DNA of 64,000 bases from a virus (lineage: Duplodnaviria; Caudoviricetes), in the IMG/VR virus record IMGVR_UViG_3300034101_006325, positions 96,001-160,000 of that record; one strand, 5' to 3'. A program made the position numbers and the translations under genes. Shown here piece by piece: positions 17,089 through 38,403 of this stretch. Below the pieces are notes generated by a model. The model was not told where the DNA came from. It ran no database searches and saw nothing but the letters and a program-made list of their open reading frames with translations. How positions within the stretch are numbered: position 1 is the first letter of the stretch; each line of letters begins with the position of its first letter.

Positions 17089-18522
17089 TTATTCTTTTAG
17101 ACTAATAAGCATAATTGACGAACCACAGCCATAGATGCGTGAAACTCCGGCAGAAAATGCCACTTGTTTTTCAGACTTTCCGTCAGAAGCCCTAAATTTA
17201 AATCTGTCATACCTTAATTCATTATCAGTGTACCAGTAATCAGGGCCGGTCGATCCAACTAGTTCAAAACCAGCAGATAGATAACCCTTTCCTGTGCCAA
17301 TTCTCCTGTCGACGTAGGTCATAATACTAACAAAACCATTAATCTTGGCCCATGTCTTTGCTGTCTTTAAAAGCTTTGAAAGTGCACCAGGAACTGAAAT
17401 TCCAGGTAGGTTACTGAAACGAGCAATCTCGATAGAATTTTCATACTTTGTTGCGTGACGAGGAACCCTGAGCGACAATGCTGAAACGACGTCTCCTCTT
17501 CTATCTTTCAAACCCCAGCATATTTTAGCAGGTGTATAACCTGATACATGGGATATATTAAAGAAACTTCGCTGTTCATCTGATCCCAGCTCAACGACAC
17601 GTGTGGACCAAGTTTTACATTTCTTTGAATGAAGTCCAAGACGGTGCTGAATCATAGATTCGACAATTGGTCTTTTGTCTCTCCACTCATCCTCAAAAAT
17701 TTGGAATAAATCTATATTTTTTTCCTCAGCAAGTCTGGCTTTCAGCTGATGAGAACTTTTGTCAAATTCATCTTCTGGTTTTCCTGCCTCACTATGCCAA
17801 TACAAACCATGACATTCTATTCCAAATTTTTTGGTAGGCACATACACGTCAATTTCTTTTGGTGACAAGGCAGATCGATCTCCGCTTATTGCATCCTTCG
17901 ATATTGACTTTACATAGTTGTACACATCTAATTCCCAATTAGATTTTCCGACAGGATAACACTTGTAGCATCTACTTCCTCGCTCGAATGCTTGCAATGT
18001 TTTTGGTTGACTTTCACCGCATTTGACGCATTCAAATAACAAATACTGCTGTTGACGTGATCTATACTCGTCAAGAGGCGTCAATAATTTAAATTCTCCT
18101 GACCTCTGAATAATTCTTTCTTCAATCGAAGTAGTTGCCAAGGTTTTGCTTGTTGATATTTTCTGTAATGTCTCCTGGGTATGCCTACGGCCGTAAAAAT
18201 GATTCCCACTGCCCGACATTTTGAATGCCTGCAAAGCTATTCTTTCATCGGTAGTTTTGTCCTTTCCTTTGTTCCAAGCTTCTGCATGACCACCTATGGC
18301 ACCCCCTTCTTTCATTGCCAATCTTGAATGGTCCTTGCAATACTTCTTGAAGGTGAATGAAACATATCTAACTTGATTGCCGCATTCAGCGCAAGTTGGT
18401 TTAATGTCATCATGTAAGACTTTAATTGTGTATTCTTCAGAACTTAAACCGTGAGAAGTCTTGACATGGTCAGAGAATCTCTTTAAATCATCGTTATGAT
18501 AACTACACAGCTTACAATCCAT
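17089..18522 (-). CDS. Hef-like homing endonuclease (Zn fingers, NUMOD3, PD-(D/E)xK, C-terminal GNAT/Mom-like domain)
   Basis: CKLC..H..H and CAEC..C Zn motifs; GSGNHFYGRRHTQETLQKIS (NUMOD3); EIDVYVP...GIECHGLYWH; TYVDRRIGTGKGY. Confidence 0.7.
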   Translation of the reverse strand: MDCKLCSYHNDDLKRFSDHVKTSHGLSSEEYTIKVLHDDIKPTCAECGNQVRYVSFTFKKYCKDHSRLAMKEGGAIGGHAEAWNKGKDKTTDERIALQAFKMSGSGNHFYGRRHTQETLQKISTSKTLATTSIEERIIQRSGEFKLLTPLDEYRSRQQQYLLFECVKCGESQPKTLQAFERGSRCYKCYPVGKSNWELDVYNYVKSISKDAISGDRSALSPKEIDVYVPTKKFGIECHGLYWHSEAGKPEDEFDKSSHQLKARLAEEKNIDLFQIFEDEWRDKRPIVESMIQHRLGLHSKKCKTWSTRVVELGSDEQRSFFNISHVSGYTPAKICWGLKDRRGDVVSALSLRVPRHATKYENSIEIARFSNLPGISVPGALSKLLKTAKTWAKINGFVSIMTYVDRRIGTGKGYLSAGFELVGSTGPDYWYTDNELRYDRFKFRASDGKSEKQVAFSAGVSRIYGCGSSIMLISLKE

Positions 18523-29880: not shown

Positions 29881-30293
29881 GCTAATTCAAATGCAGTTTT
29901 TCTTCGATAGTAAGCCGTTCTTTTTGGATTGTGTACTGCAAATCCAATTATCTCTAAAGAATCGCTGGTGGAATATTCCTTTGACTTCAGTGTTTTTCCT
30001 GAAAGCTCCGAATAAACAGCTTTCACATTCTTTAGAGCAGCATTAATTATTTCAATTGATTCAGACTCGTACATCTGTTTCATCAATGCCATCTCTTTTT
30101 CTGTTCCAAAATTTACAATAGCTGCATATGATGCAGTTAAAATAGGAGAACCATCTTCGCCTTCTGCACTGCTTCCTAACGCAGATGACAGTGTAAATTT
30201 GACGGAATAGGAAGCCGTTTTTGGTGTCGATGTCCTGCCCCAGGATGTATCAATTGCTTGTCCAAGAGCATTGTAGTCAATATTGGATGCCAT
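29877..30293 (-). CDS. Hypothetical protein
   Basis: 138 aa; SD GGAG; stop overlaps the terminase start. Confidence 0.75.
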   Translation of the reverse strand: MASNIDYNALGQAIDTSWGRTSTPKTASYSVKFTLSSALGSSAEGEDGSPILTASYAAIVNFGTEKEMALMKQMYESESIEIINAALKNVKAVYSELSGKTLKSKEYSTSDSLEIIGFAVHNPKRTAYYRRKTAFELA

Positions 30294-30320
30294 GTGTGTT
30301 CTCCATCTAAATATAATTAA

Positions 30321-30626
30321 TTATTCAAACTGAATTACTTTACTCACAAATTGACGATTCTGAACAGAAATTTCAATCTGATTTTTTGTAGGTCTCCAAC
30401 CTTTTTCCCATTCTACCTTGTGTGAATAAGCCCAAGTATCTGCACACGTTGAACAACAACCAAATTTTTTATGTGATTCTTCATCATCTTTTGTTGAATA
30501 TCTAATTTCACAGACATCACAAAAAATAGGTGTGTATTTTTTTTCATCGAAATTTTCAGGAATTATAACGCTATAATCCTCACAAATTTTTATCTTTCTA
30601 TTTCTTGTATAAGGTGACCACGTCAT
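30321..30626 (-). CDS. Small putative Zn-binding protein
   Basis: CDVC and CCSTC motifs. Confidence 0.65.
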   Translation of the reverse strand: MTWSPYTRNRKIKICEDYSVIIPENFDEKKYTPIFCDVCEIRYSTKDDEESHKKFGCCSTCADTWAYSHKVEWEKGWRPTKNQIEISVQNRQFVSKVIQFE

Positions 30627-33208
30627 TGTAGATCTCCGAAAATAATTTGTGCGTCTTTTTCAACCTTGGTTATGTCTAAAACATGATCGACAACGTCTTT
30701 GATGCCATCAACATGGGTTATAACAATAATAACCTTAAAATATCTTTTAAGAGATGTAAGCAATCTATTACATGATTCAACAGCAGAATCATCTAGAGTT
30801 CCGAACCCTTCATCTATAATAAAAAGATCTGGTTTTGGAAGAGAAGAAATATTAATCATGGCAACTCTAACTGCAAGAGAAGTTATTGTCTTTTCCATTC
30901 CTGAACAGAGTTCTATTATTCTTCTAGAATCACCATAATTAATGTAAATTTCGGTTGTGTCGGAGTCTTCTTCGTTCTCTAGCTCAACAGAAAAATCGAC
31001 TATTCCTTGCAATATTTTTGCAATTTCAGAATTTATTGCAGGAAGTTGTGAACGTGTAACAGCAAGTGGAATTCCTTTCTTAGAAAAAGCAGAAACAATT
31101 ATTTCGTTAACCTTGAGCTCCTCTAAAATTTTGTCTCTATTTAGTTTTTCTTCTATAAATTTTTCCAAATTAGCATTTAATTTGCCTTGCTGAGATGCAA
31201 TTTCCATTTTTTTAGAATCAATATTGTCAATTAATTTAGACAAAACTTCTAATTTTTCTTTGATAGAAACAGCCTCTATATTTTCTTGATTTTTTAAAGA
31301 CTGTTCTAGATTACCAAGGCGCAATCTAGCGCTTTGCAGTTCGGAAAAAATTCCATCCGATATAGACTTCTTTTTTAGATAATCATTTTCTTTTTTAGAT
31401 ACCTCAAATTTTAACTTTATCTCTAAGTCAATTAATTTCTCAATTTTTTCAAGTCTATCGATAAATCCACTTGATGTTATTGAATCTAAATTTTCGACTG
31501 CTTTATCAAGATTTGACTTAGCAAGTTTTACAGAATTAATTTGAATAATTTGCTTTTCTTTGTTGACATGAGCGTCTTTAATAAATTTGCAAGTAGGGTA
31601 TTGGTCGCCACAAGGAACTTCATCAAGTATCTTTAAAGACTTTTTTTGCTGTTCAAGAATAGATTCTTCTTTTTCAAAATTATGTCTAAGCGTTAAAAGA
31701 GAAGTTTCAAGTTGTCGATACTGCTCTTTTCTTTTCTTTAGATCTTCAATGTCATTGTTGTCTTTTACATCGGAGATCTTCTCAAGTTTAAGATTGACTT
31801 CAATAATTTCTTGTTGAAGTTTTTCAACTTGCTCAATAGACTGGTCATAGTTTGTCTGCAATTGATTAATTTTTTGTCTTAACGCATCAAGTGTTTCTTT
31901 TGAAACTGCAACGTATGGTCCTAATTTACTGATTTCTGATTGAAGACGTGAGTATTCAGCTCTTTTTTCTTCAGCATCTTGACTTAGATTTTTAAGATCT
32001 AATTTTGCTTTTTCAATATCATTTTTAGTTTGGTCAATTAGGACTGACCAATCTCTATCCGGGTAATTTTTTAATTGTGATTTTGAAGCACTTGCTTCTT
32101 TATTGGCAATTTCATGCATTCTATCAAAAATGTCAAGATCTAAAAATTTAGAAAGAATTGCTCTCCTCTTGGCAGATCCTTGAGATATGAACTGATTAAT
32201 TTCTCCTTGAGCAGAAAGAGAAGTCATTAGAAAATCTTCGTGACTTCCAATTAAATTTTTAATAATTTTTTCAGTATCGGTTCTCTGCTCTCCGTTTAAT
32301 TCGTCTACTTCACCATCTTCTTTCATCCTGTAGACATTTAAAGAAGTGGTCGCGCTAATTCCTTTTTTAGACTCAGACTTTGTTGTTTGACGCTCAATAA
32401 TGTAGTCTGTTCCACTATGATTAATGATCGCTCTTGCTGAACAATAAGGTTTTCTAATATTGCATATGTGAATATTCTTCATTGGACCACGATCAGTGGT
32501 ATTAAACAAAGCATACATGATCGTTCCAACAATAGAAGATTTTCCGATTCTATTGGCTCCAAATATTCCAACAATTCCATTGATTGCATCAAAATTTATA
32601 TAATTTTTTTCTCCATAAGAAAAAACATTGTTAAAATTAAGATGTCTTAAAGACCACTTAGAATTTCTAAGTACTTCTTCGTTAGAAGCAACAATAGATA
32701 ATATCTTTTTAATTGAGTCAGAAGTTTTAGTCCATGTTTCTTCAGAAAAATTAGAATTTTTATGATGATCTTTGACCAATTTTAAAAGAACATCAGGAGA
32801 CCTAAGGTCAGACTTGGCCAAAGATGCAGCCCCAGCTTTGACTACAGACCGATCGATTGTAACGTCTGACTTAAATGTTATTTCAGAAGCACCTTTTGAA
32901 TATAGAACAGAATTAATTGATTGAATTTCTTTTTGAGTAACGTGAGAGTTAGATCTAATTCTGTATCTTGTTCCCTTTGGATAATTTTTAGATGCTTTTA
33001 AAAGTTCGTCTAACTCTCCTGTCCACGTCAGAGTTACAAAAGGTTTTGGATTTGGCAATTTTTTAAAATTAATTGACCAATCTTCTGATGACTCAATATC
33101 CCACAATAGATAACCATGATCTAGGTCTTCAGCATAATTTTGTTGCAAAGGAGTTCCTGGATATGCAATCCAGGGTTTCTTTACCTTTATTTTTATTTTT
33201 TTGCCCAT
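30623..33208 (-). CDS. sbcC: SbcC/Rad50/gp46-like ATPase carrying the C-terminal part of an SbcD nuclease at its N-terminus
   Basis: GANRIGKSS Walker A; long coiled coil with CPTC hook; LCSGMEK signature; FIIDEGFGTLD; ITH; N-terminal AYPGTPLQQNYAE...GYLLWD. Confidence 0.9.
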   Translation of the reverse strand: MGKKIKIKVKKPWIAYPGTPLQQNYAEDLDHGYLLWDIESSEDWSINFKKLPNPKPFVTLTWTGELDELLKASKNYPKGTRYRIRSNSHVTQKEIQSINSVLYSKGASEITFKSDVTIDRSVVKAGAASLAKSDLRSPDVLLKLVKDHHKNSNFSEETWTKTSDSIKKILSIVASNEEVLRNSKWSLRHLNFNNVFSYGEKNYINFDAINGIVGIFGANRIGKSSIVGTIMYALFNTTDRGPMKNIHICNIRKPYCSARAIINHSGTDYIIERQTTKSESKKGISATTSLNVYRMKEDGEVDELNGEQRTDTEKIIKNLIGSHEDFLMTSLSAQGEINQFISQGSAKRRAILSKFLDLDIFDRMHEIANKEASASKSQLKNYPDRDWSVLIDQTKNDIEKAKLDLKNLSQDAEEKRAEYSRLQSEISKLGPYVAVSKETLDALRQKINQLQTNYDQSIEQVEKLQQEIIEVNLKLEKISDVKDNNDIEDLKKRKEQYRQLETSLLTLRHNFEKEESILEQQKKSLKILDEVPCGDQYPTCKFIKDAHVNKEKQIIQINSVKLAKSNLDKAVENLDSITSSGFIDRLEKIEKLIDLEIKLKFEVSKKENDYLKKKSISDGIFSELQSARLRLGNLEQSLKNQENIEAVSIKEKLEVLSKLIDNIDSKKMEIASQQGKLNANLEKFIEEKLNRDKILEELKVNEIIVSAFSKKGIPLAVTRSQLPAINSEIAKILQGIVDFSVELENEEDSDTTEIYINYGDSRRIIELCSGMEKTITSLAVRVAMINISSLPKPDLFIIDEGFGTLDDSAVESCNRLLTSLKRYFKVIIVITHVDGIKDVVDHVLDITKVEKDAQIIFGDLQ

Positions 33209-33220
33209 GTGAATTGATCT

Positions 33221-33865
33221 TTATTCAACAATTGTGCAGCCTGGATATTTTGACAATTCTTCTTCTTCTATTTCGATGGTTACTTCTCTAAAGTCCAAAA
33301 ATTGCATTTTGTGTATGTCTCCCAGAAGTACAAAATCAAAGTCTTTGAAAAATTCGACTGTTAAACCTTCTTCTATATTCCAGCCTGTTTCACTTACTGA
33401 TCCATTGACAGGCCCATGATAGCAAGCAATATTAACATCGCCTTTTATGGGTTTTACATTCTTCCAGCCTTCTTCGTCAAAAAGGCTGAAGACGCACAGG
33501 TTGTATCCTTTTTGAATTTCAAAGACTCCGCTTTTTTTGTAAAGAAAAATTCTAGGATTGTTAAGCGCAGAAACTATTGGTGAAACTGCATCTTGTCTAG
33601 ATAAATTAACTAGATTGCCGTCATGATTTCCTAGTGTTAAATGAACAGGTGCAATTTTGCTCATTGCATCTAACCACCAAGTTAGATGCTCAATATATTC
33701 AGGTGATATTCCTGTTGTTTTAGTATGAAAAATGTCACCACCCACAAAAATGTGATTCACACTATTTTTTTTGCAATCATTAATGAATGCTGTAAAAACT
33801 TCTCTATACTCGTCATGACGAGTCAAGCCTCGCCAGTGAACGTCTGCAGTATGTGCGATTCGCAT
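33221..33865 (-). CDS. sbcD: SbcD/Mre11/gp47-like metallophosphoesterase, N-terminal part only
   Basis: ADVHW; GGDIFH; GNHDG; CYHG; LGDIHK; ATG at 33865. Confidence 0.9.
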   Translation of the reverse strand: MRIAHTADVHWRGLTRHDEYREVFTAFINDCKKNSVNHIFVGGDIFHTKTTGISPEYIEHLTWWLDAMSKIAPVHLTLGNHDGNLVNLSRQDAVSPIVSALNNPRIFLYKKSGVFEIQKGYNLCVFSLFDEEGWKNVKPIKGDVNIACYHGPVNGSVSETGWNIEEGLTVEFFKDFDFVLLGDIHKMQFLDFREVTIEIEEEELSKYPGCTIVE

Positions 33866-33903
33866 TTTAATCAAAAATATACATCAAAAAGAAACTGTTC
33901 AAT

Positions 33904-34887
33904 TTAGATGCTAAATCTAATTTCAGTTGCTTTCTTCATTTTTCTTAAAAAATCATCTTCCCAATTTATTATTTTCGCATCAGATAGTGCGTTCTCGAAT
34001 TCCAACTTAGACATATTTCCGGGATCTTTCCACTGTCTAACGTCAACAACTAAAACATCAATGTTATATTCCATTAATTTTTTTGCAATTTTTGGAGTTT
34101 TCTTATCCCACATGTCACCATCGAGTGCCAACCAAATAGGCGTATTATTTAAAAGAATTTTATTAAATATTTCATGTCTTTCGTCCAGATCAGACCCCAG
34201 CAAAGCTGTGGAATTTTCAGGGCATTTAACCAAATCAAATGCACCTTCTACTAGAACAAGTCTCTTCTGCCAGTCCAAGTTAATTTCATTAAAAACTATA
34301 GGATTTTTATCAACATCAGGATTGTCGTACTTGGGTTTTTTATCTTTGTCAATTGCTCTTGCTACAAAATAGTTTAAATTTCCTAGTGAGTCAAAAGAAG
34401 GCATGATCAACCTTCTTTTCCAACGAGGTTCATCAGAAATTCCTAACTTAAAATACCATGCATCTTTGTCAGTTAATCCTCTCGAATAAAGATAACGCCA
34501 CGCTGCCTTGACATCAGGATCTAAATCGTTTGCAAGAGAAAGAAGTTTAAAATCTTTTGGAAGACAAATTTTTTGTTTTTCTTCTTTTTCTCCTGTGACT
34601 AGTCGAGAAGTCCCGGGAGATATTCCGAACATTTCCTTGAAAGTTTCAAGTTGAAGTTGTGTACCGTATTTCCTGATGAGTGGAATAATTGTTCTTGATT
34701 TCCATCCACATACCCAGCAATGGTTGGCCGACGTATCTGTTCTAATTGAAAGTTTCTTTTTAGATTGGTCAGAAGGCGCACATATGGGGCAGCGTACGTC
34801 AAAATTAATTCCATTGGAAGATACGTGACCTTTGCCAAAGATAGATTCAAAAAAAATAATGCTGTCAGAGACAGAACGGATTCCCAC
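33904..34887 (-). CDS. DNA primase, gp61/DnaG-like
   Basis: CPIC...HCWVC Zn ribbon; TOPRIM LVEGAFD and LALDGD. Confidence 0.9.
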   Translation of the reverse strand: MGIRSVSDSIIFFESIFGKGHVSSNGINFDVRCPICAPSDQSKKKLSIRTDTSANHCWVCGWKSRTIIPLIRKYGTQLQLETFKEMFGISPGTSRLVTGEKEEKQKICLPKDFKLLSLANDLDPDVKAAWRYLYSRGLTDKDAWYFKLGISDEPRWKRRLIMPSFDSLGNLNYFVARAIDKDKKPKYDNPDVDKNPIVFNEINLDWQKRLVLVEGAFDLVKCPENSTALLGSDLDERHEIFNKILLNNTPIWLALDGDMWDKKTPKIAKKLMEYNIDVLVVDVRQWKDPGNMSKLEFENALSDAKIINWEDDFLRKMKKATEIRFSI

Positions 34888-34918
34888 ATAATTATCCTAA
34901 CAAATAATCATGAGATGT

Positions 34919-35473
34919 TCATAAGAGGCATGCAGCCCTGGCTATCACATATGCATCCGTAGCATCTCGACTCCAGTCTACTGGTTCTCCATTTTTCTTC
35001 TTTGGCCATACAACATGTTTTAAGTCATTCTCTGACATGTATCTAAAAACTTGTTCTTTGCCATTTATGCCCGCAATGGACGTCTTCTGCAATTTTATTC
35101 CGCATGATTTTCTTGCTGTTGATGAAGCTATGTACTGAGGATCTACACCAAATATTCCTCTTGAAATATACGAGACAATGCCATTGAATCTCATCAGCGT
35201 AGTTATCGTTGCTGCGGAAGACATTCCCGCCCTGAAACCCATCAGTGGTTCCTCAAGATAGACTTTGTAGTCTCCTGGAAATTTATTTTTCAAATCACCG
35301 AGGGATCTTGATGTAAAATCTGCCTTATCCCAAAGTGTATTGCACTTCTTGTATTCAATCCTATCGAGATAAATAATGTGCGATCCTGAGTCATCCCCTG
35401 CTTTGTTTGCATCGAGTATTGACACACCTGTCACAGATGTCGAAACATCCAAGCCTATGATATAGTTCTTCAC
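34919..35473 (-). CDS. RuvC-like Holliday junction resolvase
   Basis: IIGLDVSTSVTG; YLEEP; DATDAYVIA. Confidence 0.8.
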   Translation of the reverse strand: MKNYIIGLDVSTSVTGVSILDANKAGDDSGSHIIYLDRIEYKKCNTLWDKADFTSRSLGDLKNKFPGDYKVYLEEPLMGFRAGMSSAATITTLMRFNGIVSYISRGIFGVDPQYIASSTARKSCGIKLQKTSIAGINGKEQVFRYMSENDLKHVVWPKKKNGEPVDWSRDATDAYVIARAACLL

Positions 35474-35513: not shown

Positions 35514-35924
35514 TTATAAAAGACCTAATTCTTTTAATTCTATTTCTGTCAATATTTTATAAATGGCGCCGTGTGTCACGCACCACTGCTCTGCAGCTGC
35601 AGTCTTCTTCTTGATTGCTGCCTGTTGTAATTTTCTGCGAGGCTTTACTTCTAAAACCTCAGAATGACCATCCAAATAAGAAACGAAAAAGTCTGGGTAG
35701 TATTTGCGAATCTTTTTTGTCCTAATGTTTGAGACATATTCAATGACAGTCTTTTCATAGCTCCAATGTGAAATATCAGGTTGATCATCAAGATATTTCA
35801 TGACAGCAAGTTCCCACCCGCTTCGATATTTGCAGATCTGACCAGTCTTGGAAGATGTATACTCACCTCGGTGGTAATGACCTTTTCTCTTAACTTTTCT
35901 ACGAATCTTTTTTTTTAAAGTCAT
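35514..35924 (-). CDS. Head completion nuclease, T4 gp4 / TnsA-N-like
   Basis: YRSGWEL..M.YLD; WSYE..VIEY; YYPDF; LEVKP; ATG 35924. Confidence 0.8.
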   Translation of the reverse strand: MTLKKKIRRKVKRKGHYHRGEYTSSKTGQICKYRSGWELAVMKYLDDQPDISHWSYEKTVIEYVSNIRTKKIRKYYPDFFVSYLDGHSEVLEVKPRRKLQQAAIKKKTAAAEQWCVTHGAIYKILTEIELKELGLL

Positions 35925-35931
35925 TAGAAGA

Positions 35932-38403
35932 TCACCAGTCAAATCCTACCTTAAAAAGAATTTTTTCGGGTTCTCTTTTTAACACTGGTTGTGCAAGATT
36001 GGCTTTTGCAACTACATTGAGGTTCTCATCGTGCATATTTATTTCTGTAATATAGACAAATAAATCAGTATCGAGCGGATCATTGGATGCACTTATAATT
36101 TCTTTGAGTGGTGCATAGGACCCATTGGAAGACGAATTTAATAGTCCTGAAGGCGCCAAAAGCGCATACTTGCTTGAATGAAGCTGATATTCTCCTCTAA
36201 AAGACATCTCATATTGATCTTTACCGAAAAAGTTTATGTGTGGACTTTTGAGAAATACGACGCCTTCATTGTAGAATATATTTCCAATAGACGATTTTTT
36301 GCTATGGGGTGTTAAAGAATCTGCTCTGTATAGATTGCCATTTCCGTCATCTTTTATTGTTATAGAAACAGCTCCTCCGGAGCCTGTCATATTGCTGTCT
36401 TTTAAGACAAATGATTTAGGCAAAATTCTACTGCCATAAAAAAGGTTGCTTATGTCGAAAAATGTAATCTGATTTGAAGATGGGTCTTTGGTTCTCTCGT
36501 AAATTGAAAGTGGAAATCCTTTGATGAAAGAAGGATCATATAGCTCTTCATTTATTTGTGAAATTTTATTTTTTATTGCTTCACCAGGAAGCAAACCTGG
36601 GTACTCTGGATTAAATCCTAGCAGTTCTTCATATACATCGGGAAGACTCTCATAATCGTTAAAATCGCCCAAAACTGAAGTGTCATTTAAAAGATAATCC
36701 AACCCAATTAAACTGGTGTTTAGTCTTCCGAATGAGTCTATTCCTTTATTTGTTACTTCATTTACTATAAGACCATAGTTTGGATTAAAGTTTCCATCAT
36801 CACAGGGCAGTATAGTTAAATTTCTTTTTCTAACAAAAGGATCATCATAAAGTATATCATTAGCTACTTGTGGCGAAGTAGTTGTTGTCTTTACTGACGC
36901 AGATAAATGATGTAGACGTGCATAGTTTTGATTGGCAAAATCTTTGACAAAGTTATCTAAGTTAATATAGTGTCCTCCCACGCCGAAAGACATTCCTACA
37001 TTAAATGGATCGTTGGTATAACCATCGACCTCATAGAAAGGTGTCAATAAGACGCCTCCATAAGATGTTGCTGGGCCTCCCAAAGGAGTAACAAATTTTC
37101 TGTATGGAGCTTTTTCAACAAAAAATGGAGGAAGATAAAAAGCAACATCAGTGGAAGTTGTTTCTTGAGATAAACCACGTCCTTTTAGATTGTTGATATC
37201 CAAATTGGTCTTATATGAACGATAAATTGCCAGATTATGAACCTCTGCTTTTAAAGGATGTCTCAAAAGATATGTGTCTGGCTCGTCTTGGGTCCCGCCG
37301 CTGTCTATTAGATTTGGCAATCCTTCTCTTTCTGATTCAATGTCGCTAAAAAAGTACGACATTCCGCTTGTTCCCTGATTGGTTCCTTCAAAATAATTTC
37401 CAACAAATAACACAGTTGGTTCATCACTGTTGTTAAAAATTTGTGGTGAAATTGTTCCAGAAGGCACAGTAAAGTAACCGCAATCTTTGCCATTTACATA
37501 AAATGAGCCAGTTCCATCATTTACTAAATTAGTTCCCCACCTGACTATTACATGATTCCAAGTGTTCCAGTCCAAAATATTGTCGTCAGAATGAAAAATT
37601 AAATCACTAGGATAGCTTCCTGGAATTGCTTCTGAAGGAGGAATGTCAGCGCTATGACTTAATTGTAACTGCAATTTAAAACTTGCAGGATAACCATTTT
37701 GATCTTTTGAAGAACCAGTGACAAGAGAAAGACAATAGCTTGATGATAAATGAAAAATTGTTCCTGCACGAAATTCGCCTGGGTCTAAATAATCCTCTTT
37801 ATACCTAGGATTAATATAACATTCAAATGTGAAAGGTCCTGATAATGAATAAGTTCCTCCCACAAAACCTGGGGGAGTTACCAAGTTATTATTTTCAATA
37901 TTTGCAAAAAGAAGTGCAGAAGTCGATGGAACATCGGGGGAAGTAAAAAAATTTAATGAATGATAATTTGTGTAGGCCCAGTTGGCTGTCTTGTAATTAA
38001 TTCGATAATGAGGAATTAGAATATCTTTTACATTCAACTTTCGCAATGTGTCCGCAGTAAGATCTGCCGTAGGAACAAATCTTCTTATGCCTATTGTCTT
38101 CTTTTTCTTTATGGACGTGTCTTGTGTGTTGACCTTTTCTAGATATTGTTCGACAATCTTTGAATAATCCTGAGCGTTATTCAGGACTGCTTGACTCATG
38201 TAATTTTCTAAATTTTCATCATTAAACACAGACTGCTGAAACATCGCAAGAGGACGTATCTCTTTCTCTATGTTAGAAGCACGAGGATATAGATTAATCG
38301 CTCCAGTTGTCTCTCCCAAAGAATTTGATTTAAAAAATCTTTCAGGATTAATAACAGTAGTAATTAATTCTACATCCTCAGCTCTTACGGGTATGATTGA
38401 CAT
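35932..38403 (-). CDS. Baseplate/tail structural protein with a LamG-like domain
   Basis: FTFECYINP, WNHVIVRW, FYVNG; C-terminal YITEINMHDENLNVVAKANLAQP. Confidence 0.6.
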   Translation of the reverse strand: MSIIPVRAEDVELITTVINPERFFKSNSLGETTGAINLYPRASNIEKEIRPLAMFQQSVFNDENLENYMSQAVLNNAQDYSKIVEQYLEKVNTQDTSIKKKKTIGIRRFVPTADLTADTLRKLNVKDILIPHYRINYKTANWAYTNYHSLNFFTSPDVPSTSALLFANIENNNLVTPPGFVGGTYSLSGPFTFECYINPRYKEDYLDPGEFRAGTIFHLSSSYCLSLVTGSSKDQNGYPASFKLQLQLSHSADIPPSEAIPGSYPSDLIFHSDDNILDWNTWNHVIVRWGTNLVNDGTGSFYVNGKDCGYFTVPSGTISPQIFNNSDEPTVLFVGNYFEGTNQGTSGMSYFFSDIESEREGLPNLIDSGGTQDEPDTYLLRHPLKAEVHNLAIYRSYKTNLDINNLKGRGLSQETTSTDVAFYLPPFFVEKAPYRKFVTPLGGPATSYGGVLLTPFYEVDGYTNDPFNVGMSFGVGGHYINLDNFVKDFANQNYARLHHLSASVKTTTTSPQVANDILYDDPFVRKRNLTILPCDDGNFNPNYGLIVNEVTNKGIDSFGRLNTSLIGLDYLLNDTSVLGDFNDYESLPDVYEELLGFNPEYPGLLPGEAIKNKISQINEELYDPSFIKGFPLSIYERTKDPSSNQITFFDISNLFYGSRILPKSFVLKDSNMTGSGGAVSITIKDDGNGNLYRADSLTPHSKKSSIGNIFYNEGVVFLKSPHINFFGKDQYEMSFRGEYQLHSSKYALLAPSGLLNSSSNGSYAPLKEIISASNDPLDTDLFVYITEINMHDENLNVVAKANLAQPVLKREPEKILFKVGFDW

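Follow-up and report, generated by a model that had tools for sequence, protein, structure and literature searches.

A phage Mre11-Rad50 enzyme encoded in two pieces: a predicted clasp of oppositely charged strands and a probable history of homing

Introduction

How can a nuclease whose fold is divided between two open reading frames (ORFs) remain functional, and by what route did the division arise? This question is raised by the SbcD/Mre11 and SbcC/Rad50 genes of a lake jumbo phage, located at 30623-33874 in a region where all genes lie on the minus strand. The DNA analysed here (the window) is a stretch of 64,000 nucleotides within a 200-kb IMG/VR virus record from lake water (IMGVR_UViG_3300034101_006325), which is estimated to be 61% complete. 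An earlier sequence-only reading had described a naturally split SbcD/Mre11 nuclease, the second ORF of which continues into SbcC, and had suggested that oppositely charged strands at the break rejoin the two halves.

The answer that we favour, with a probability of about 0.75, is that the window encodes a working two-piece Mre11-Rad50, that the pieces are joined by a clasp of beta-strands, and that the split was brought by a homing endonuclease that has since been lost. This answer draws on the anatomy of the locus, the conservation of the break, the endonucleases present in relatives and the mosaic phylogeny of the family.

Anatomy of the split gene

The two ORFs and the elements at and around the break are as follows.

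33221-33865, minus strand: SbcD/Mre11 N-half ORF, 214 aa from the ATG at 33865; match to phrog_100 (SbcD-like), 1.4e-18
33257-33286, minus strand: acidic alternating strand EVTIEIEEEE, residues 197-206 in the 217-aa numbering; outer part of the long predicted clasp strand beta1
33224-33256, minus strand: tail end LSKYPGCTIVE, predicted short helix and strand beta2; absent from short-loop fused relatives
33221-33223, minus strand: N-half stop codon TAA, the same in contigs of three other studies
33209-33220, minus strand: spacer AGATCAATTCAC, 12 nt, in frame; site of the endonuclease cassette or its remnants in relatives
30623-33208, minus strand: C-half ORF, 861 aa from ATG, starting MGKKIKIKVKKPWIAYPGTP (longer stretch MGKKIKIKVKKPWIAYPGTPLQQNYAE)
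33176-33208, minus strand: basic alternating head MGKKIKIKVKK at the start of the C-half; predicted clasp strand beta3
32654-33175, minus strand: remainder of the Mre11 fold on the second chain (AYPGTP strand and further sandwich strands, capping domain, helical linker)
30623-32653, minus strand: SbcC/Rad50 part; AAA_23 1.7e-11, SMC_N 1.5e-10, phrog_77 (SbcC-like) 5e-55
32534-32560, minus strand: Walker A, GANRIGKSS
31589-31612, minus strand: coiled-coil apex CGDQYPTC (C-x6-C)
30887-30907, minus strand: ABC signature CSGMEKT, a variant of LSGG
30791-30826, minus strand: Walker B, LFIIDEGFGTLD

The full phosphoesterase set resides on the first chain: ADVH, GGDIFH, GNHD, YHGP and GDIH follow the metal-binding pattern of Mre11/SbcD (DxH, GDxxH, GNHD/E, H, GxxH), the last of them being GDIH and not GHxH. 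The match to Pfam Metallophos is above the cut-off (5.8e-15), and the motif positions are invariant across 111 homologs. The chain ends in ...GDIHKMQFLDFREVTIEIEEEELSKYPGCTIVE (longer stretch ...REVTIEIEEEELSKYPGCTIVE), followed by the TAA. Its listed start is a TTG at 33874 (33221-33874; 217 aa); the ATG at 33865 is the likelier start because the resulting length of 214 aa agrees with that of the homologs.

The second ORF lies in the same frame as the first, with one stop and four codons between them, so that the arrangement of TAA, 12-nt spacer and ATG is as previously described. That this ORF comprises the rest of Mre11 joined to SbcC is borne out by the Pfam matches to AAA_23 and SMC_N and by the AYPGTP motif. 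The KYPGC in the tail of the first chain resembles the YPGS/T motif of these nucleases, yet it is part of an inserted module, and the true motif is the AYPGTP of the second ORF. A Q-loop (SAQGE) and an H-loop (ITHVD) are also present in the C-half and, together with the Walker motifs and the signature, make up the motif set of a Rad50/SbcC ABC ATPase. A CxxC zinc hook is missing from the apex, which has C-x6-C in the window and likewise in one split relative, locus L061 (CGDDYPTC). Both the C-x6-C apex and the CSGMEK signature, in place of CxxC and LSGG, are kept in relatives. No piece is missing: both halves are full length and contain every conserved motif. The tail of the first chain has a net charge of -6 and the head of the second a net charge of +6.

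Three studies apart from the probable source provide contigs (X2, X3 and X4) that span at least 32962-33323 with zero differences, which rules out an assembly error as the origin of the TAA; the stop codon at 33221-33223, for which a check in raw reads had been proposed along with the split, is the same in these contigs. Homologs from other assemblies have the same ends, with 94% identity for the N-half and 88% for the 861-aa C-half. The same break is found in relatives. The claim of a natural split inside the nuclease fold holds.

Fused and split forms in the family

The fused chain is the usual state of this gene in relatives, a fact that had escaped the sequence-only reading. A single ORF with a short loop at the corresponding position, for example GDIHQMQHLGYRDTLDGNKKPWISYPGTP, is present in 72 of the 80 IMG/VR loci that are closest (50-61% identity), and the other eight are split exactly like the window; nine more distant loci are also split there. 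In GenBank phages, a megablast search with the 10-kb region gave no match, and a translated search gave matches that run through the junction without a break in Microcystis phage Mel-JY01, in which the protein is annotated with 1066 aa and adjoins primase as in the window, and in one 735-kb phage. A search of a large protein collection (E <= 1e-10) returned 467 matches of N-half length and 836 longer ones. The break point and the type of tail are shared by most of the former, and a single chain of more than 1000 aa is found in 115 of the 120 longer homologs listed. Roughly a third of the family clusters are split. In the window, the gene is a conserved enzyme gene that is broken into two adjacent ORFs inside a domain.

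The new ends are conserved. In the split near loci, the N-half ends in E[AV]EIEIDEDEL.KYPGCT[IV][IV]E and the C-half starts with MGKKIKIKVK[KR]. More broadly, the acidic tail stands at the C-terminus of 117 of the 120 best N-half-length proteins, with the consensus GDIH..Q.L..R.VEL.IDE.DL.KYPGAEV.E and the acidic strand conserved in these 117 homologs as E[IL]x[IV]DExDL; the basic head, M[SG]K[KR][IL][KR]I[KR].[KQ][KR][PG]W, is present in all 38 C-half clusters examined. The mean net charge is -4.9 for the 117 tails and +5.5 for the 38 heads. Where the fused forms have a loop of 4-9 residues, the split forms have these extra residues instead, about 21 at the end of the N-half and 9-11 at the start of the C-half. 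The charged ends are no product of chance: the residue pattern of tail and head persists in GC-richer lineages despite quite different DNA, so that selection acts at the protein level.

Three unsplit SbcD-SbcC proteins of about 1076-1077 aa (P0232, P0168 and P0150) carry the module of about 30 residues as well, with the opposite charges relaxed or reversed. The weaker charge in these unsplit forms, which are only three cases, fits selection for complementarity after a chain break. Two of the three are nested among split forms on the tree of N-terminal regions, and they may be re-fusions. A further protein, the fragment P0242, has an intermediate plain hairpin, VEYVKGSERIKAQRPW.

A predicted three-stranded clasp

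A complex of the N-half with residues 1-185 of the C-half was modelled with a score of 0.91, compared to 0.39 for the best control; this mark is reached by 58 of 80 solved complexes and by two of 110 mismatched pairs. Between runs, at least 98% of contacts are the same, and the predicted local distance difference test value (pLDDT) of the partner is at least 71. The predicted interface comprises residues 180-205, 207, 210 and 212-217 of the N-half and residues 2-21 and 31-55 of the C-half, with about 195 contacts that are mostly in the core.

An AlphaFold2 (AF2) model of the read-through chain (pLDDT 87.3 overall) places a strand at 191-203 (QFLDFREVTIEIE, pLDDT 92-96), a helix at 204-209, a second strand at 214-221 (CTIVE...) and a third at 224-238 (GKKIKIKVKKPWIAY), with pLDDT of 89-97 for these elements. 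Foldseek matched this model to Mre11 of T. maritima (3qg5) and SbcD of E. coli (4lty and 4m0v) with probability 1.00 and E-values of 2e-16 to 1e-14 over 370-440 aligned columns. The model thus has the nuclease sandwich and the capping domain, and the predicted fold requires both chains. The same order of strand, helix, strand, turn and strand is found in the model of the unsplit P0232, in which the GG turn is the site where the split forms are broken.

As predicted by these models, the tail and the head form one three-stranded sheet that is broken at a turn, and the acidic and basic ends probably clasp the two proteins together. The electrostatic beta-zipper proposed earlier is thereby retained in part: the opposite charges are conserved and both models place the ends adjacent in one sheet, but the predicted clasp has three strands, because the CTIVE segment also pairs, a strand that the proposal had missed. 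Under our model, the break would lie at the tight turn of a beta-meander of about 30 residues between GDIH and the AYPGTP strand. The first chain would provide all the metal-binding motifs, followed by the acidic strand, the short helix and the last strand; the basic strand of the second chain would lie against the two tail strands to make the three-stranded clasp, and this chain would then add the strands still missing from the sandwich, the capping domain and all of Rad50. The halves would assemble non-covalently, without splicing or readthrough. We infer that they bind each other and that the charged strands contribute to the binding; as a whole, the clasp is a reasonable idea that the models support.

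Two considerations weigh against so direct a role of the charged strands. Many single-chain structures of this nuclease fold have been solved, and the complex score may mirror likeness to those Mre11 structures, in which case it supports binding of the modelled halves and leaves the role of the tails aside. Furthermore, in the split NrdA of Aeromonas phage Aeh1, the two halves bind into a heterodimer even without the comparable tails, whereas the dimer of heterodimers requires them (Crona et al. 2011, PMC3045599). The latter finding suits an alternative under which the split is functional and the tail and head are no more than a structural insert that has been inherited. Assembly would then proceed through the core interface without any need for the insert, the function of which might lie, for example, in dimer formation or DNA contact. 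The existence of unsplit proteins with the same module and the location of most of the predicted contacts in the core fit this alternative, too. It does not readily account for the strong and consistent opposite charge of the split forms, which is relaxed or reversed in the three unsplit proteins, or for the direct contact of head and tail in both models, and we consider it unlikely.

Movement of the junction and endonucleases in the gap

The distribution of the split across the family points to repeated transfer of the junction. On the tree of C-halves, seven distinct split rows require seven state changes, and forcing the split rows into one group makes the tree 1598 log-likelihood units worse (approximately unbiased test, p-AU 8.6e-43); in this constrained tree, the first 110 columns were left out, and the group was defined by the trait, yet after the first tree had been viewed. 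The tree of the N-terminal 150 residues (229 rows) requires 13 state changes, compared to about 77 with shuffled labels. Nearly all members of one superclade on it are split; in another, fused forms prevail, and splits of the window type are scattered among them as singletons. Repeated junction transfer is thus formally supported.

The DNA around the junction shows a matching pattern. A split allele and its nearest fused sister have 86-96% identity away from the junction and 63-75% beside it, whereas split alleles of different clades share 85-90% identity in the first 60 nt past the junction and 41-68% over the greater part of the few hundred bases that follow. Such a junction-centred pattern is the mosaic that is expected from endonuclease-driven gene conversion with co-conversion of the flanks.

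A candidate for such an endonuclease, which is another feature that had gone unnoticed, occupies the gap in some relatives. Free-standing endonuclease genes lie between the halves in L061 and L089, compared to 12 nt in the window. In L061, the gap contains an ORF of 300 aa, which has zinc-finger-like repeats and, at its C-terminus, a nuclease domain of the Vsr/DUF559 type; it matches phrog_3339, 'homing endonuclease' (4e-17), with Pfam matches to Vsr and DUF559 below the cut-offs, and its 3' end extends 16 nt into the start of the C-half. Other loci hold what remains of this cassette: L013 retains the first and last codons of an L061-type ORF, L024 and L082 retain its 3' end, and L011 retains the left spacer, so that a nested deletion series results. 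In the GC-rich relative L089, the gap holds an unrelated protein of 306 aa that combines a zinc finger of the MucR/Ros type with a TnsA-like nuclease domain.

Several further observations concern these endonucleases. The window has a 142-aa ORF at 35514-35942 (minus strand) with a PD-(D/E)XK/TnsA-like core, which matches phrog_218 (labelled 'head closure', 1.4e-24) as well as endonuclease families and has 35% identity (E 5e-17, pairwise) to the nuclease domain of the L089 endonuclease. The genome of the window was searched for the L061 endonuclease, with a single weak domain match elsewhere, at 17686-17868 on the minus strand of the window (G000:C1:113686-113868; E 8.6e-6, 36% identity over 66 residues to the Vsr-like domain); it lies inside a 495-aa open frame that may be another endonuclease-type gene. 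In L061, an 8-bp AU-rich stem, UUCAACAA GAUU UUGUUGAA (2077-2096), directly follows the N-half stop upstream of the endonuclease start. Hairpins upstream of such endonucleases have been described (Dassa et al. 2009, PMC2677866). The one in L061 is partly retained in L011, and its stability is not above that of shuffled sequence (z = -0.75); after the N-half stop of the window, no hairpin was found.

We infer that the split spread by homing. Under this scenario, the split would be old and stable in one phage group, and an endonuclease in the gap would have carried the junction into fused genes of the sister group. The split junction and the tails would, most likely, have reached the window lineage by gene conversion via a free-standing gene for a Vsr-like homing endonuclease, and this gene would later have been deleted, leaving the 12-nt spacer.

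Several points tell against this history. The history of the window has to be read from its relatives, because its 12-nt spacer contains no recognisable endonuclease remnant and is too short for confident alignment. The window's own co-conversion signal is weak, with 66-75% identity in the first 60 nt versus 40-60% in most of the next few hundred bases. In addition, the large, mostly split superclade has no endonuclease and joins its halves by ATGA/GTGA overlaps, so that the original split may predate the endonuclease. An alternative holds, accordingly, that the window inherited its split vertically from this old one and that the endonucleases are later tenants of the gap with no role in bringing the split. 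It gains from the tight coupling in the endonuclease-free superclade, with its embedded Shine-Dalgarno sequence (see below), from the presence of two unrelated nucleases in the same gap, and from the same doubt expressed about gene 43 of Aeromonas phage 25, where the question likewise is whether the endonuclease caused the split or moved in later (Edgell et al. 2010, PMC2988022). Against it stand the scattering of the window's split type as singletons in a mostly fused clade, with junction-centred similarity, and the fact that this type (EIEI..KYPGCTIVE / MGKKIKIKVKK) is shared with the endonuclease-bearing L061 and the relatives with decayed cassettes. We regard purely vertical inheritance as improbable and retain homing as the preferred explanation.

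Protein and RNA splicing were also considered and rejected. The Pfam matches of either half and of the L061 insert include no Hint family, in agreement with the earlier statement that no intein is present; the tails are too short for inteins, and the junction residues are V/E and P/W. For group I or II introns, there is no Rfam match (E up to 0.1) in 30000-35000 of the window or in L061, L089 and L013, and each half has its own stop and start.

Translation of the two halves

The junctions of split relatives are laid out in varied ways, with spacers of 12, 24, 42, 76, 137 or 924 nt or with ATGA/GTGA overlaps. In some loci, the gap is in frame (12, 24 or 42 nt), and one of the 42-nt loci has two further stops; in two others (76 and 137 nt) it is out of frame, and the 924-nt gap is that of L061. 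In distant split lineages, the start of the C-half overlaps the stop of the N-half as ATGA or GTGA in another frame, and the tail codons for A-E-V-I, a few bases upstream, spell a near-perfect Shine-Dalgarno sequence, GAGGTGAT. The loci with the overlap and the embedded GAGGTGAT are L083, L084, L085, L088 and L091. Because these codons double as a Shine-Dalgarno sequence, the end of the tail is under a double constraint. The 12-nt spacer of the window contains no Shine-Dalgarno sequence.

From this variety of layouts it follows that the halves are separate genes, which are probably translationally coupled. In the window, re-initiation 12 nt past the stop would probably allow separate translation of the C-half. 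The in-frame spacing of the window appears to be incidental. An in-frame spacer in five of the seven distinct near relatives carries no weight, since these have common ancestry and the distant split forms overlap out of frame. The earlier proposal that readthrough of the single TAA would yield an SbcD-SbcC fusion finds its only support in this common frame, with one stop and four codons between the ORFs. Several relatives are out of frame, and readthrough is thus not the mechanism; extra stops, a 924-nt gene or overlapping frames separate the halves in others, the second ORF has its own conserved ATG or GTG and head, and no recoding signal or Rfam match was found. Together with the identical TAA in contigs of three other studies, these facts make it very improbable that one chain is produced, be it by readthrough or in consequence of a sequencing error hidden in the stop. 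A decaying pseudogene broken by a nonsense mutation, which a stop codon inside a conserved fold could indicate, can practically be dismissed because both halves are full length with all conserved motifs and the same break, with conserved new ends, recurs in hundreds of protein clusters.

Downstream of the C-half, a 101-aa Cys-rich ORF without a PHROG match (30321-30626, minus strand) overlaps the last 4 nt of the SbcC ORF with its start.

Implications

To our knowledge, there has been a single test, on NrdA of phage Aeh1, of how an enzyme survives when a selfish gene splits one of its folded domains. The SbcD-SbcC family offers hundreds of natural variants in four states at one site, namely, short loop, long loop, split, and split with an endonuclease, and the clear charge pattern of the predicted clasp makes charge-swap and tail-deletion designs easy. 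For annotation, the consequence is that such paired ORFs should be treated as one enzyme and not as a truncated SbcD beside an odd SbcC.

A bolder proposition is that tail and head by themselves suffice as a portable clasp for heterodimerisation and move along with the endonuclease gene. This proposition is tentative, and we lean towards doubting it. If it were true, a selfish element would bring its own antidote at the protein level and could insert itself into the gene of an essential enzyme even in the midst of a folded domain. Fission would, moreover, be reversible, considering that the window is one stop codon away from an unsplit chain and that unsplit module forms are nested among split ones. 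The family would then provide a natural series for studying the tolerance of proteins to fission, along with a small natural split-protein tag.

Comparison with known systems

Naturally split inteins, for example those of the fractured DnaE and gp41 genes of Dassa et al. (2009), resemble the present case in the layout of half, endonuclease and half and in the association of fragments that is thought to be electrostatic. They differ in that no Hint domain is present here, the tails have only about 21 and about 11 residues, and there are no Cys, Ser or Thr nucleophiles at the junctions, so that ligation is not expected.

Among T4-type phages, replication and repair genes are known in pieces with free-standing endonucleases; examples reviewed by Edgell et al. 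(2010, PMC2988022) are the topoisomerase genes gp39/gp60 of T4, associated with mobA, and gene 43A/43B of Aeromonas phage 25, associated with a seg gene. The genes are different from those studied here, and a beta-strand clasp has not been described for them.

Single-chain Mre11/Rad50 proteins have been reported in Mimivirus (R555) and in aquatic viral homologs (Yoshida, Claverie and Ogata 2011, PMC3175470). The unsplit relatives of the window gene are of this kind, with N-terminal Mre11 and C-terminal Rad50 on a single chain, whereas the window has two ORFs, re-split inside the Mre11 fold and not at the boundary between Mre11 and Rad50.

The closest parallel with respect to the tails is the split NrdA of Aeh1 (NrdA-a/NrdA-b), in which oppositely charged tails acquired with mobE are essential; similar tails have been predicted on other fragmented genes (Crona et al. 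2011, PMC3045599). In both cases, an essential phage enzyme is, or appears to have been, split by a free-standing homing endonuclease, new tails of opposite charge flank the break, and no splicing occurs. The host gene is a different one, the Aeh1 endonuclease is of the HNH type, and the polarity is reversed, with a basic C-terminal tail and an acidic N-terminal tail in Aeh1. The Aeh1 tails serve the dimerisation of heterodimers and not the joining of the halves, whereas in the window the latter role is the one proposed.

The locus itself has a precedent in an SbcD-like locus from Lake Gatun, in which a Vsr-like free-standing endonuclease lies between the N- and C-halves without any intein, the 3' end of the endonuclease gene overlaps the downstream half, and 25 extra C-terminal and nine extra N-terminal residues at the break are absent from unsplit homologs (Dassa et al. 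2009, PMC2677866). The window likewise comes from fresh water and has two half-ORFs of an SbcD-like nuclease, and L061 matches the description with its endonuclease included; the window differs in that it lacks the endonuclease and has an in-frame spacer of 12 nt. That both loci are broken at the same point is judged from the description in that paper and not from sequence. The charge or fold of the extra residues, the fusion to Rad50 and the spread in populations were not discussed there. The window is, then, an endonuclease-free stage of a locus type that has been known since 2009, a connection that the sequence-only reading had also missed. It contributes the endonuclease-free end stage and no new principle. 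What is new compared to the earlier descriptions is the size of the family and the share of split clusters in it, the three strands of the predicted clasp, the coupled-translation layout of the old split lineages, the unsplit forms that bear the module and the formal support for repeated transfer of the junction.

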